Positions 974-29,085 of a stretch of DNA of 64,000 nucleotides are shown in pieces. Source of the DNA: Alphaproteobacteria bacterium. GTDB lineage: Bacteria; Pseudomonadota; Alphaproteobacteria; CALKHQ01. Every line of letters starts with the position of its first letter. The first letter of the stretch is position 1. The translations under genes were made by a program, and so were the position numbers. Below the pieces are notes generated by a model. That model was not told the origin of the DNA and did no database searches. It worked only from the letters and a program-made list of their open reading frames with translations. The stretch covers positions 2,016,001-2,080,000 of the forward strand of contig CBDDFZ010000001.1 of NCBI GenBank assembly GCA_965227515.1, given 5' to 3'.

Positions 974-1771
974 GTGACAGTTTACTAAATACCAGCGGTG
1001 TGCCAAGTTCGGCGTATGGCACGCATCGCACGACTGGTCGTTCCCGGCCTGCCCCACCACGTCACGCAGCGCGGCAATCGCGGCGAGCAGACGTTCTTCT
1101 CGGACGATGACTACACCCTCTACAAGACCCTGCTGGCGGAGGCCGCCAGGAACGCTGGCGCGGAGGTCTGGGCCTATTGCCTGATGCCCAATCACGCGCA
1201 CGTCGTCGTCGTGCCGCAGGACGAGGACGGGTTGCGCAAGACCTTCGCCGACGCCCACCGCCGCTACACCAGGCACATCAATGCCCGACTGGGGGTGACC
1301 GGCCATATGTGGCAGGGCCGCTTCGGCTCGATCGCCATGGACGATGGGTATCTGGCCCATGCCGTGCGCTACATTTCGCTGGCCCCGGTACGCGAGAAAC
1401 TGGTCAAGCGCGCGGACAAATGGCGCTGGTCGAGCGTTGCCGCGCATCTGGCGGGCCGCGACGACGACCTTGTCACCGTCGCCCCGGTTCTGGAGCGGGT
1501 CGGCGACTTCGCGCATTTCCTCGATCAGAAGACAAATGATGCGGAGGCGGACGCATTCGCGGCCCTCAGGAAGTCGGAAACGTCCGGCCGCCCGCTGGGC
1601 GATGCCGACTTCATCGCCGGCCTGGAGCGGCGGACCGGCCGTACCTTGCAGGCTCAAAAGCGCGGCCCCAAGCCGAAGCGGCGCAACTGAATATTTCGGT
1701 GACAGTTTACTAAATACGATTGGGTCAGCGTGCGATCGGTACGGTGGTGCTGGTATTTAGTAAACTGTCAC
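974..1771 (+). mobile_element. Y1 (HUH) transposase unit bounded by perfect 23-bp inverted repeats
   Basis: GTGACAGTTTACTAAATACCAGC (974-996) has its exact reverse complement at 1749-1771. A third, direct 19-bp copy lies at 1699-1717. Confidence 0.8.
1016..1690 (+). CDS. REP-associated/IS200-like tyrosine transposase (RAYT, Y1_Tnp)
   Basis: MARIARLVVPGLPHHVTQRGN, YCLMPNHAH (HUH), WQGRF, RYISLAP, WRWSS motifs. Confidence 0.92.
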   Translation: MARIARLVVPGLPHHVTQRGNRGEQTFFSDDDYTLYKTLLAEAARNAGAEVWAYCLMPNHAHVVVVPQDEDGLRKTFADAHRRYTRHINARLGVTGHMWQGRFGSIAMDDGYLAHAVRYISLAPVREKLVKRADKWRWSSVAAHLAGRDDDLVTVAPVLERVGDFAHFLDQKTNDAEADAFAALRKSETSGRPLGDADFIAGLERRTGRTLQAQKRGPKPKRRN

Positions 1772-3148: not shown

Positions 3149-4615
3149 TTATGCGAACGGATCGGCGTCCAGCACGGTCGCCACGTACATGGCGCTGTCG
3201 AGCCCGTACGCGATGGCTTCCGCATTCGCGTCCTGCAGCACCACGGGCAGAAGCTCGCCGGTGTCCAGCCGCAGCAGGATCTTGCCGTCTGCCTTGAACG
3301 CGATCAGGCTCTCGCTGTGGACGGCGCCGCCCTCGCCAAAGTAGGTGTCGAGCAGGATGATGTCGCCGTCGAAATCGCGGATGTAGTCGATCGCGCTGTC
3401 GTTGGAGATGTGGAACCGGTCGACGCCGAGCCCGCCCCAAACCTGGTCGGTGCCCGCGCTGAGGAAGACGTCGTCGTCGCCCGCGCCGGCCAGCACCATG
3501 TCGTTGCCGCCGCCGCCGTTCAGGTGGTCGGCCGCGCCGTAGACCGCATAGGCCTGGTTCCATTCCTTGTCGTCGCCGAAGATCAGATCGGCGCCGTCGC
3601 CGCCCTCGATGCTGTCCTCGCCCAGGCCGCCAACCAGCTCGTCGGCATCGCTGGAGCCATACAGCCGGTCGTTGTCCGCACCGCCGTTGAGCTTGTCGCC
3701 GCCGCCGTCGGCATAGAGCCGGTCGTCGCCGTCGCCGCCACTCAGTACGTCGGCGTAGGTGTCCCCGTCGTCATGGCGAGTCATACCGGCGACCAGATCG
3801 TCATTGCCGGCGCGGCCGATGATGCTATCGGCACCGACTTGCCCGAACAGGAAGTCCACGCCCTGACCACCGTCGATGAAGTCGTCGCCGTCATGGCCGA
3901 ACACATGGTCGTCGCCATAGCCGCCGAGCAGCACATCGCCGAAATCGCTGCCTTCCACGATGTCGCTGTCGCCGCCGCCGTCCAGATAACAGGCCGCATC
4001 CGAGCGGCCTTGCAGGTGGTCGTTGCCCATGTCGCCGTACATGGTGTTGGACCCATGATAGTCGCTGAGGAAGTCGTCGCCCCAGCCGCCGCGCATGATG
4101 TCGTCGCCCTCGGCGCCGAACACCCGGTCGTTGCCGTCGCCGCCCAGCAGCTCGTCGTTGCCGTGGCCGCCGTTCAGGGCGTCGTCGCCGTCGCCGCCCT
4201 CCAGGTGGTCGTCGCCGTCGTTGCCGTTCAGCGTGTCATCGTCGTCGCCGCCATAGATGAAGTCGTTGCCGTTGCCGCCGATCAGCACGTCGTTGCCGGC
4301 GCGGCCCAGCAGGATGTCGTTGCCGTCGCCGCCTTCCACCCGGTCGCTTCCGGCTCCGCCGTCGACGATGTCGTTGCCGCCGCCGCCGTAGAGCCGGTCG
4401 ACGCCACCGCCGCCGGTGATCAGGTCATTGCCGTCATGGCCGTGGATCTCGTCCCAATAGTCGGTGCCTTCCAGCACGTCGCTGTCATCGGTGCCGACGA
4501 TGGTGTTGGCCAACGCATGCCAGACGGTTTCGCTGTCGAAGGCCGGTTCGAAGATCGTGCCGGTGTCGATGTTCTGGTCCAGGCCGAGGCCGCCAGGAAG
4601 GGTGTCGAGGGGCAT
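3149..4615 (-). CDS. RTX (hemolysin-type) Ca-binding repeat protein
   Basis: Many GGxGxDxL nonapeptides; RBS AGGAGG upstream. Confidence 0.9.
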   Translation of the reverse strand: MPLDTLPGGLGLDQNIDTGTIFEPAFDSETVWHALANTIVGTDDSDVLEGTDYWDEIHGHDGNDLITGGGGVDRLYGGGGNDIVDGGAGSDRVEGGDGNDILLGRAGNDVLIGGNGNDFIYGGDDDDTLNGNDGDDHLEGGDGDDALNGGHGNDELLGGDGNDRVFGAEGDDIMRGGWGDDFLSDYHGSNTMYGDMGNDHLQGRSDAACYLDGGGDSDIVEGSDFGDVLLGGYGDDHVFGHDGDDFIDGGQGVDFLFGQVGADSIIGRAGNDDLVAGMTRHDDGDTYADVLSGGDGDDRLYADGGGDKLNGGADNDRLYGSSDADELVGGLGEDSIEGGDGADLIFGDDKEWNQAYAVYGAADHLNGGGGNDMVLAGAGDDDVFLSAGTDQVWGGLGVDRFHISNDSAIDYIRDFDGDIILLDTYFGEGGAVHSESLIAFKADGKILLRLDTGELLPVVLQDANAEAIAYGLDSAMYVATVLDADPFA

Positions 4616-26297: not shown

Positions 26298-26442
26298 CGT
26301 CATTGCGAGGAGCGCCCATCGGGCGCGACGCGGCAATCCAGGTCCGTAGTCCGTAGCCCGGGTGGAACGCAGTGCAACCCGGGGGCGGTAGATGCACTGG
26401 CCGCTGGCCTTCCCGGGTTCCGCTCCGCTCCACCCGGGCTAC
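26298..26442. repeat. CGTC REP arm (26298-26341) followed by a GTAG REP doublet (26353-26442)
   Basis: CGTCATTGCGAGGAGCG..CGACGCGGCAATCCAG; GTAGCCCGGGTGGAACG...TCCACCCGGGCTAC. Confidence 0.85.
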
Positions 26443-26833: not shown

Positions 26834-27019
26834 CTACTTCTGCTCGAGAAACAGTTCGATGTGACCGCAGGCCGTGCAGGCCCGCGCGGCGACCTGGCGG
26901 CCGCGGCGGAAGCTGCCCTCGCTCGGCAGCTTGAACCGCAGCGGCGCGTTCCAAACGACGTGGCCGTCCTCGAACCCGCTGCCGCCACACTTCAGGCACG
27001 TGTCGTCGGATGTTGTCAT
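26834..27019 (-). CDS. Small zinc-ribbon protein (CxxC...CxxCG)
   Basis: MTTSDDTCLKCGG...ACTACGHIELF; GGGGAG RBS. Confidence 0.75.
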   Translation of the reverse strand: MTTSDDTCLKCGGSGFEDGHVVWNAPLRFKLPSEGSFRRGRQVAARACTACGHIELFLEQK

Positions 27020-27096
27020 GAGCGTACTCCCCGCGAACTGCGTTGAGGGGGAGGGTAGCACCGTCGCAATCACGCTGCGATCAGCGCGACAGGGTT

Positions 27097-27179
27097 GTAG
27101 CCCGGGTGGAACGAAGTGCAACCCGGGGACATACCTTCACCTCCAAGTTCCCCGGATTGCGCTCCGCACCATCCGGGCT
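27097..27179. repeat. GTAG REP doublet interrupted at its right end by the IS110
   Basis: GTAGCCCGGGTGG...CCATCCGGGCT; the missing terminal AC is at 28600-28601. Confidence 0.88.
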
Positions 27180-27204
27180 TCTGTAACGGGCCATTGTTGG
27201 TCAA

Positions 27205-27430
27205 TCCCTTTTTCGTCGTCCCGGCGCCTGGGTCATGCTTCTGTACGGGGTCGGCGCAGGGCCGCCGCCAAGATGGATATGCGAGGATCGGTCGGTCCAA
27301 TCTACGGAAGCGTGCTCTCATGCGAGGCGACATCCCGGATGGCGGCCTGACCTGATCCATCGTCCCGGCGCGGGACGGCGCTCGACGGGCCGGTGTCGGT
27401 GCCCGTCGAAGCTCGTGTGTCGGTTCTCCT
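27205..27430 (-). ncRNA. Putative bridge/seek RNA of the IS110 element (boundaries approximate)
   Basis: On the minus strand, in order: hairpins, CCATCCGGG, CGTAG (target matches), then CCATCTT, TACAGAAG (donor-junction matches). Confidence 0.72.
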
Positions 27431-27443
27431 TATGCCGCGGCCA

Positions 27444-28487
27444 TCATGCTGTCGCCATCGCCGGGCGCACCGGTCCGGCATGGTTGAACGGTGTGCCGTC
27501 AACCCACATCCGGTGCATGATGACGGCGAGCCGGCGCGCCAGCGCGACCTTCGCCTTCCTCATGCCCGCACGCCTGGCCAGCTTCATCGCCCAGCTCTTC
27601 AGCCAGCCGCCCTCGATCGGCCGGGTCAGAACCACGTGCGCCGCCTCATAGAGGGCCGAGCGCACATCGGCGTCCCCTACCTTCGATATCCGCCCCATCA
27701 CCTCGCTCTCGCCCGACTGGCGCTTGGTCGGCGTCAGGCCGAAGTGCGCACCCACCAGGCGCGACGAGGCAAACCGCCCGGGGTCGTCCACTCCCGACAA
27801 GTAGGTCAGTCCGACAATGCTCCCCACGCCCGGCACCGTCATCAGCAGGCGAGCGCGATCGTCGGCCTGCGCCGCCGCCCGGACCTGCCGGTCCAGCGCC
27901 GTGAACGATAGCAACAGGCCATCGCGTGCCGACAGCAGCGCCCCCGCCACCGCCTCCAGTACCGGATGCCCCGCCACAAGCTCCGAAATACGTGTCGAAA
28001 AGCTGCGCCTGGTGGTGTGCCCTACCTTCAGCCCGAAGTTCCGCAGCTGACCACGAAGGTGCATCTCAAGATCGTGCAGCTTCGCGCGGAGCTGGTCGCG
28101 ACCCTTCAAAAGGGCCCGCATCTCCTGGGCCGCCAAAGACTTGCAGTGAACCGGACGAAACCAGCCCACACGCATCAGCTGAGCAATCCCGCGTGCGTCC
28201 GAGCGGTCCGACTTCACCGGCATCGTCGAAAGCGCTCGCGCAACATGACGCGTCTCCAGCAACTCAACCGAAAGACCGCCCTCGCTACATCCCCGCACAA
28301 GCCATTGCGACAACGGCCCCGCCTCAAGACCAATCCGCTCAACCGAAATCCCCAAAGACCCAAACCACAACAACAAACCCGCCGGCGTGCTCGCAATACG
28401 AGCCTCGCAGACAATCCCGCCCGCGCCGTCAACAACGCACACCGATGACCATTCCAAAGAAACGTCAATCCCGGCATAGTAGTTCAT
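27444..28487 (-). CDS. IS110-family transposase/recombinase (DEDD RuvC plus Tnp serine domain)
   Basis: MNYYAGIDVS, GLEAG, KSDRSDARGIA, VPGVG, GLTP..RQSGE, ARRLA; AGGAG RBS before 28487. Confidence 0.96.
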   Translation of the reverse strand: MNYYAGIDVSLEWSSVCVVDGAGGIVCEARIASTPAGLLLWFGSLGISVERIGLEAGPLSQWLVRGCSEGGLSVELLETRHVARALSTMPVKSDRSDARGIAQLMRVGWFRPVHCKSLAAQEMRALLKGRDQLRAKLHDLEMHLRGQLRNFGLKVGHTTRRSFSTRISELVAGHPVLEAVAGALLSARDGLLLSFTALDRQVRAAAQADDRARLLMTVPGVGSIVGLTYLSGVDDPGRFASSRLVGAHFGLTPTKRQSGESEVMGRISKVGDADVRSALYEAAHVVLTRPIEGGWLKSWAMKLARRAGMRKAKVALARRLAVIMHRMWVDGTPFNHAGPVRPAMATA

Positions 28488-28597
28488 GGTCGTCTCTCCT
28501 CGATGTCTTGGAGCGGCAAACCCGACTCCGTGTATGACACCGACATCTTGAGGGACGACCACTCATGCACGCCACCAAACAAGGGCCGTTAGCCCAT

Positions 28598-28861
28598 CTA
28601 CGCTTGCTCATTCTGCTCCCGAACGAACCGGACAAGCTCGTTCATACGTTCATACGACTGAAACGCGACAATGGCGCGCTCGAACAAGACCCTGGTCACG
28701 AGCGGACCGAACAGAAGTGCCGTCCACCAAGCCCAATGATCGAGCGAGATCAGGACATAGGTGCCGTAGAGACACCCGCCAATGCCTGCCCAGAACAAGA
28801 CCTGAAGGACATAGGGCGAAATCATCTTTCTGAATGTCAGGATGTCGAGCGCGCTTCTCAT
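28598..28861 (-). CDS. Small membrane protein (DUF4282-like)
   Basis: LTFRKMISP.VLQVLFW...RVLFE.AIV.F; two TM segments; its TAG stop is the REP GTAG. Confidence 0.75.
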   Translation of the reverse strand: MRSALDILTFRKMISPYVLQVLFWAGIGGCLYGTYVLISLDHWAWWTALLFGPLVTRVLFERAIVAFQSYERMNELVRFVREQNEQA

Positions 28862-29001
28862 TTGAACCGTGCCTCCCTTGCTATGCCGGTGGTCCGGTCA
28901 TAACGGGCGCCGGTTCGGCGCGCCGGTCGGCGACGGCAAAGCAGCGACTCCCGAATGGCTTGGGGCCTCAAGGTCCGCACGTCGCCCAACGGCAAGCGAC
29001 C

Positions 29002-29085
29002 GTAGCCTGGGTGGAACGAAGTGCGACCGGGAATACCTCTCAGCATGCAACAGCCCCGGATTGCGCCCCGCGCCATCCGGGCTAC
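29002..29085. repeat. GTAG REP doublet
   Basis: GTAGCCTGGGTGGAACGAAGTG...CCATCCGGGCTAC. Confidence 0.88.

Follow-up and report, generated by a model that had tools for sequence, protein, structure and literature searches.

An insertion sequence of the IS1111 group in a host GTAG-REP and its putative bridge RNA

The window, a DNA stretch of 64,000 nucleotides, contains an insertion sequence inside a GTAG-REP repeat of its host and raises the question how the element recognizes this site. RNA-guided recombination by IS110 and IS1111 elements was described in 2024 (PMC11208160, PMC11187229, PMC11208158). The initial annotation had proposed such a system for the locus, an RNA-guided recombinase aimed at the REP, and the proposal is supported by the affiliation of the protein to NF033542, by covarying helices, by the covariation of guides with flanks and by the abundance of the REP in the genome. 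Very probably, an intact IS1111-group element resides in the host GTAG-REP, and its right end encodes a bridge RNA of ~150 nt on the recombinase strand. The coordinates of the features are compiled in Table 1.

Table 1 Features of the insertion sequence and of its modelled bridge RNA, in positions of the window
Feature	Position	Strand	Observation
Complete insertion sequence, with the core dinucleotide counted at both ends	27178..28599	-	Ends set by 20/20 full genome copies
Left junction: host CGT and core AG, the GTAG head of the REP	28598..28602	-	GTAG in 20/20 copies
Left end, non-coding, 110 nt, opening ATGGGCTAACGGCCC	28488..28597	-	
Left subterminal inverted repeat TAACGGCC	28591-28584	-	
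Recombinase gene, 347 aa plus stop	27444..28487	-	Motif GLTPTKRQSG, residues 250-259
Two 5' hairpins upstream of the guide modules	27362..27409	-	
Modelled bridge RNA core	27224..27371	-	RNAalifold, model R2
Helix P1, enclosing all else	27371-27364 with 27232-27224	-	6/8 pairs changed on both sides
Target-binding module	27285..27358	-	P2 and P3
Stem P2	27358-27344 with 27298-27285	-	92.2 % of cells paired; 6/9 pairs changed on both sides
Left target guide CCAUCCGGG	27334..27342	-	Would pair with flank strand CCCGGATGG
Inner stem-loop P3	27331-27312	-	79.0 % of cells paired; 7/8 pairs changed on both sides
Right target guide CGU with core AG; the following AU takes the place of the IS621 handshake guide	27300..27306	-	
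Left donor guide CCAU, then CU and U	27270..27276	-	
Stem-loop P4 between the donor guides	27247..27268	-	97.8 % of cells paired; 4/6 pairs changed on both sides
Right donor guide UACAGA with core AG; the following CA is in handshake position	27236..27245	-	
TTGACC, -35-like hexamer	27204-27199	-	Within right-end segment 27184..27204
Right subterminal inverted repeat GGCCCGTTA	27192-27184	-	
Right junction: core AG and host CCCGGATGG	27169..27179	-	CCYGGRTG in 20/20 copies

The genome with the window (G000; two contigs, 5.52 Mb) contained 20 full copies of the element with 89.7-100 % identity, and the boundaries were defined by the outer flanks of the copies, which were unrelated to one another. 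Counted with one copy of the core, the element has a length of 1420 bp. All 20 full copies had a left flank ending with GTAG, an element start ATGGGC (in longer form ATGGGCTAACGG), an element 3' end TTACAGAAG (in longer form CCCGTTACAGAAG) and a right flank opening with CCYGGRTG; the base preceding GTAG was C in 15, T in three and A in two copies. AG, or CT on the plus strand, was the sole dinucleotide common to both junctions, thus the core is CT on the plus strand of the window. The target was reconstructed as CCATCCGGG-CT-ACG and the joined ends as GCCCAT-CT-TCTGTA; both reconstructions had been given in the initial annotation and are borne out by the 20 full copies and the single common dinucleotide. 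In the CT frame, the left junction represents the right target plus core, and the host CCCGGATGG at the right junction the left target. The insertion was site-specific, with no target duplication beyond the common core dinucleotide in 20 of 20 copies, and the uninterrupted sequence GTAGCCYGGRTG is the host repeat. Thirteen copies were at least 99 % identical, so the element was apparently active in the recent past. A 21st copy (G000:C1:998352-999179) was broken by an internal deletion that left the first ~722 and the last 120 bases, and had only a partial RNA (49.9 bits). An empty site or a circle junction was not seen in the contigs of four DNA runs. One contig from one of these runs joined position 27127 to 29000, skipping 1872 bases (side 24) and linking two REP regions. 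Upstream of the element, an 87-aa ORF (28598-28861, minus strand) has a stop codon TAG (28598-28600) that is the TAG of the REP head GTAG; since each junction retains the core, the insertion does not destroy this stop codon.

The recombinase ORF was intact in all 20 copies, with a length of 345-347 aa and the motif GLTPTKRQSG at residues 250-259. The protein scored 237.4 bits against the NCBIfam equivalog NF033542 'IS110 family RNA-guided transposase' (cut-off 140), and matched the Pfam domains PF01548 (DEDD_Tnp_IS110, N-terminal) with 48.6 bits and PF02371 (Transposase_20, C-terminal) with 73.2 bits. The sole relatives with a solved structure were the bridge recombinases ISCro4 (9t56, 1e-11) and IS621 (8wt6, 7e-11), in both cases over the C-terminal domain only, and the SG of the motif GLTPTKRQSG aligned to the SG of both proteins. 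The conserved Ser-Gly of the Tnp domain holds the catalytic serine in IS621. Judged by its domains, the Ser-Gly and the insertion pattern, the element is a member of the IS110 family. Elements of the IS1111 group are distinguished by subterminal inverted repeats of 7-17 bp and a longer non-coding region downstream (PMC11187229, PMC11208160), and by transposases of 330-350 aa with GL-P----S/TG, as in the ISEc11-type proteins, which the recombinase resembles (PMC11187229). Here, a left end of 110 nt and a right end of 264 nt, a protein of 347 aa with GLTPTKRQSG and subterminal repeats were present, and by this published list the element is affiliated to the IS1111 group of the IS110 family. The non-coding right end of 264 nt, as annotated before, extends from the stop codon (27444-27446) to the last base before the common AG (27180). 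The subterminal inverted repeat is imperfect in the window (TAACGGCC against GGCCCGTTA, eight matching bases with a 1-nt indel), whereas relatives, e.g., L026, L028 and L030, have perfect repeats of 9-10 bp with covarying arms. A terminator-like hairpin (GGGCTAACGGCCC, then TTGTTTGG) at 28583-28595 on the minus strand occupies the very beginning of the left end, where it shares bases with the left subterminal repeat.

The host repeat GTAGCCYGGRTG was found at 114 sites in G000, compared to 0 sites for the backwards control, usually as convergent pairs ~70-80 bp apart. Three other genomes of the order contained it 32, 5 and 2 times. Searching the four genomes of the order for the RNA with the covariance model R2 (described below) gave 21 matches in G000 and 0 in the three others; as these genomes hold the repeat in spite of that, the repeat is not confined to the element-carrying genome, being present in a related genus without the element. 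The looser pattern GTAGCCNGGNTG yielded 123 unoccupied sites in G000, and the 20 intact copies stand among 143 candidate sites in one genome. Near the occupied site of the window, unoccupied GTAGCCYGGRTG sites were located at 27097-27108 (+), 29002-29013 (+), 29074-29085 (-), 26353-26364 (+) and 26431-26442 (-); of these, the site at 27097 forms a doublet with the disrupted REP.

Scanning one genome for each species revealed 29 homologous loci with proteins 43-69 % identical to the recombinase, 27 of them from Alphaproteobacteria. Despite this protein divergence, the right end could be aligned on the nucleotide level by nhmmer in 21 of the 29 loci. The alignments A1 and A2 comprised 18 of the loci and two copies from the own genome. 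RNAalifold on these 20 sequences predicted three helices, the long-range P1, P2 closing the first guide pair and the hairpin P4. The variable hairpin P3 between the first guide pair was added by inspection, and the covariance model R2 was built on this structure, which was written by hand and thus partly picked by eye ahead of counting. The long-range helix was lost in model R1, which was derived from the consensus computed automatically from A2, and R1 was dropped in favor of R2. The cmsearch with R2 covered 23 of the 29 loci, with L027, L029, L037, L040, L043 and L049 omitted as duplicates or incomplete, and R2 matched 24 of 26 sources, including three loci outside the training set (L050 with 68.5 bits, L035 with 59.6 bits and L036 with 35.8 bits). 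A match to R2 was not found for L051, nor at E <= 0.01 for L034, a full-length homolog with 49 % protein identity and a recognisable left end AG/ATGGGGCAATCGGG.

Among the 25 R2 matches, 90.5 % of the helix cells formed standard pairs. Shuffling the 3' letters reduced this value to 72.9 %, with 0 of 500 shuffles reaching the observed value, and sliding the partners by one to three columns left at most 47.5 % paired. Compensatory changes on both sides were present in 23 of 31 helix pairs. Since A3 is an alignment of related sequences and was itself fitted to the model, the pair counts are inflated on both accounts, nevertheless the margin is large. All four guide segments fell outside the four conserved helices, which places the donor guides in a multiloop between P1, P2 and P4. 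A location of the four segments in two internal loops had been suggested together with the initial annotation: their position outside of conserved helices held, but an arrangement of two tandem internal loops as in IS621 did not. Segments base-paired in stems had been named as evidence against the guides; the consensus helices exclude all guides, while the free-energy fold of the window sequence brought the two target guides into partial pairing. This pairing was rejected as a conserved feature, with 46.7 % of the cells paired compared to 44.0 % after shuffling, a value reached by 60 of 500 shuffles. The single-sequence fold was no better than those of shuffled sequences (z = -1.12). In the unconstrained ensemble, the mean unpaired probabilities of the four guides were 0.33, 0.46, 0.58 and 0.72, and the consensus-constrained fold had -57.2 kcal/mol compared to -60.9 kcal/mol for the free fold.

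The GC hairpins annotated in front of the guides proved to be real: the first has a 9-bp stem (27382-27390/27401-27409), the second, GTCCC/GGGAC at 27376-27362, competes with helix P1 for GGG. The second stem is almost invariant, hence no covariation was obtained for it. Positions 27355-27370 and 27263-27278 form an inverted repeat of 16 nt with 81 % complementarity. Through this repeat, AUCCAUC of the left donor guide could pair with GAUGGAU directly 5' of P2; both sequences are near-invariant in the relatives. A search of 26900-28900 against Rfam 15 at E <= 10 gave no match to a bridge-RNA family, more likely for the lack of such a model in the library than for the absence of the RNA. Sub-threshold matches of miRNA models to the adjacent REP hairpin (27098-27180) were taken as chance hits, with 26.4 bits for the best compared to a gathering threshold of 84.

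On the recombinase strand, the four segments of the initial annotation were recovered: CCATCCGGG at 27342-27334, CGTAG at 27306-27302, CCATCTT at 27276-27270 and TACAGAAG at 27245-27238. The region of the right target guide repeats nine of ten bases of the left junction (direct repeat D19). The AU following this guide is identical to the dinucleotide at which the left end starts; in L039 and L046, both with left ends starting with CT, it is replaced by CU. An alignment of homologs, proposed earlier as a check on the guides, revealed covariation of target guides and flanks. In elements with a known flank, the uninterrupted match of loop and flank was counted from the junction. For the left target guide, cognate matches had a mean of 6.56 nt (n=18) versus 2.80 nt for non-cognate ones (n=286; permutation p <= 5e-5); the right target guide matched 2.54 nt beyond AG (n=13) versus 0.55 nt (n=154; permutation p <= 5e-5). 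The left-guide matches included CATGCGGG in L026, AATCCGCC in L024, GCATGTCCG in L030, TTCGAGTC in L044, GGAATGC in L042, CAATGGGTC in L045 and GTAGTG in L041. Four of the 18 cognate left-guide matches were not longer than 3 nt (L025, L032, L048 and the first module of L039). Overall, the relatives span at least eight different target sequences on one common RNA scaffold. The matched left-guide stretch was followed by the core CU in 10 of 18 elements. The element of the window has AT instead of CT in this place, as correctly annotated before, and its close relatives carry AU, AA, CA or CC, thus the mismatched first core base is a trait of the clade. In IS621, the first core base is likewise the less conserved one (PMC11208158).

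Taken together, these observations support that the 264-nt right end encodes a bridge RNA (seekRNA), which would be transcribed and active. In the proposed mechanism, helix P1 would close the whole RNA; P2 inside P1 would carry the target-binding loop, in which P3 separates the two target guides. Target recognition would involve base pairing of the left target guide CCAUCCGGG to the flank strand CCCGGATGG, and of the right target guide CGU-AG to the opposite strand of GTAG. In the multiloop, P4 would have a donor guide on either side (CCAU.., UACAGA-AG), both matching the ends as joined in the circle. In analogy to IS621 and ISEc11, the element may be excised as a circle; the recombinase bound to the RNA would then pair the circle junction with an unoccupied REP, and strand exchange at the CT core would leave no duplication except the common core. 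Transcription of the RNA, its binding by the protein, the chemistry and the circle, as well as the activity and programmability of the system, are inferred. TTGACC may form one half of a circle-junction promoter, as known for ISEc11 and ISEc21 (PMC11187229). In the element it is located 17 nt upstream of the junction-spanning GAAGAT, and TTGAC was aligned in most of 22 rows, with L023, L039 and L046 as exceptions.

Possibly only the target-binding module acts as RNA, a short seekRNA, and the protein reads the ends via the subterminal repeats and the flanks, in which case the 'donor guides' would have been kept for another reason, e.g., protein binding or RNA processing. The main RNA bound to IS1111-type transposases has 82-96 nt, and only target matches were described in it (PMC11187229), but donor-binding bases in a multiloop were predicted for many IS1111 elements (PMC11208160). 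A reading of the ends by the protein would fit to the subterminal inverted repeats, which covary between the ends in relatives. The right donor guide, however, shares 12 of 14 bases with the right terminus (direct repeat D11), and in 18 of 18 elements with a known right end, guide and end are in agreement at the variable C/G position of ACAGAAG/AGAGAAG. L041 has a left donor guide GGCAU, CCCAU in the others, together with a left end starting with ATGCC, hence guide and end changed together. The donor guides match the element ends as joined, with a covariation that stems from few independent changes. The left donor guide is not followed by a conserved CU but by a dinucleotide that varies among relatives (CA, GA, GG, GC, CC and CU). 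The bases after the right donor guide matched the flank in some elements only and were given no weight. Since strong covariation was also seen in P1 and P4, the helices on either side of the donor guides, a restriction of the RNA to the target-binding module is improbable.

Even less probable is a function of the right end as DNA, either through binding sites or, as in IS200/IS605, through target pairing by a folded single strand. A simple scan found 0 sigma-70-like promoters in 27100-28700, but this is weak evidence, and the RNA may derive from the recombinase transcript. Helices with frequent G-U pairs, e.g., UG in 15 rows at columns 26/99, suit the recombinase strand only, and the use of RNA by the protein family has been shown experimentally (PMC11208160, PMC11187229). 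A coincidence of the four matches, or an origin from REP remnants inside the element, is hardly credible. The REP is palindromic, so ATCCGGG occurs also in its other arm, and when the non-coding end was shuffled 100,000 times by mononucleotides, the 5-mer was found by chance in 21 %; the 9-mer, 7-mer and 8-mer appeared in 0.32 %, 0.42 % and 0.22 %, and at least two of these three long segments together in 0.005 %. Thus the 5-mer alone is not significant, but the set is. Moreover, relatives with unrelated, non-REP targets hold a matching sequence at the same structural position. The bridge RNA with target and donor guides is therefore the preferred reading.

Within G000, the left target guide exists in two versions. 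Seven copies, 89.7-97.3 % identical to that of the window, carry CCAUCCAGG (..CCAGG) in place of CCAUCCGGG (..CCGGG). The 13 copies with CCAUCCGGG occupied 11 CCCGG and two CCTGG sites, the seven copies with CCAUCCAGG 0 CCCGG and seven CCTGG sites; the G-to-A variant of the guide thus tracks the occupied REP variant (Fisher p = 4.6e-4). The perfectly matching CCCGGATG was occupied by 9 of the 13 copies with the G guide, and represents 19 % of all sites (binomial p = 1e-4). Among the 180 guide-target positions of the 20 insertions, 162 were Watson-Crick pairs, 12 G-T/U-G wobble pairs and six mismatches. All six mismatches affected position 1, the outermost; positions 2-9 had 148 of 160 Watson-Crick and 12 of 160 wobble pairs. 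In run X3, from a different organism, a contig of 1438 bases over the element had C>T at 27336 (plus strand), which is the G-to-A variant of the guide. A second, stand-alone target module was observed in L039, a Hyphomicrobium MAG, at 3768-3838, 34 nt 3' of a complete bridge RNA (23.3 bits, model positions 22-91); the right end of L039 measures ~530 nt. The guide of the second module, UUCCGUCC-CU, matches the actual right flank TTCCGTCC-CT, the first module does not, thus one element could hold alternative target specificities. As a tentative and rather doubtful extension, a single G-to-A change in the guide may have split the family into two lineages on different REP variants, with only wobble tolerated inside the guide, and the target arm may represent a duplicable or exchangeable cassette nested in the donor multiloop. 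Natural retargeting by few guide changes has been described for ISEc21/ISMch6 of the IS110 type (PMC11187229).

The RNA of IS1111 elements is located in the right end, with the donor-binding bases in a multiloop (PMC11208160). The element of the window shares with the IS1111 bridge RNAs of Durrant et al. 2024 the long right end, the downstream RNA, the subterminal repeats and the CT core, and, compared by the text description, the target guides in an internal loop and the donor bases in a multiloop; it is a different element with a different target, and has AU instead of CU after the left target guide (PMC11208160). In the IS1111 seekRNAs tested by Siddiquee et al. 2024, the top-strand match is 5' of the bottom-strand match, the reverse of the IS110 type (PMC11187229). 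With the recombinase strand as top strand, the target segment complementary to the top strand comes first in the window, followed by the one for the bottom strand, and this order as well as the downstream non-coding region resemble the seekRNAs of ISEc11, ISPa11, ISKpn4 and ISPst6. These seekRNAs are experimentally known to be bound by the transposase and needed for transposition, whereas the element of the window is known from its sequence; in contrast to the latter, the ISEc11-type seekRNA is described without donor guides (PMC11187229).

Similarities to IS621 of the IS110 group (Hiraizumi et al. 2024, PMC11208158) comprise the four guides with the same strand logic, the CT core, the REP target, a dinucleotide in handshake position behind each right guide and the tolerance of G-T and U-G. 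However, the IS621 RNA is encoded upstream in the left end and folds into tandem stem-loops, while the RNA of the window would lie downstream, with its target arm nested in the closing helix of the donor multiloop (PMC11208158). The IS621 protein matches the recombinase over the C-terminal domain only (E = 7e-11). ISPpu9 of Pseudomonas putida, with the small RNA Ssr9, is another IS110-family element in a REP with a small-RNA gene downstream; host class and sequence differ, and the likeness is drawn from the description (PMC12288879). By these comparisons, the element is a typical pair of IS1111-type bridge RNA and recombinase, predicted to be aimed at a REP, without a new mechanism. Its 20 intact copies in 143 candidate sites provide a natural specificity profile, together with an apparent natural one-base retargeting event, and the relatives are a useful panel for comparing IS1111-type bridge recombinases, which have been less studied than IS621.

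Two matches to Y1_Tnp (PF01797) were obtained, with 35.7 bits at ~1088-1375 (+) of the window and with 23.9 bits at G000:C1:1603908-1604246; both look like REP-associated tyrosine transposases. The latter is located between convergent GTAG-REPs at C1:1603786 and C1:1604418.
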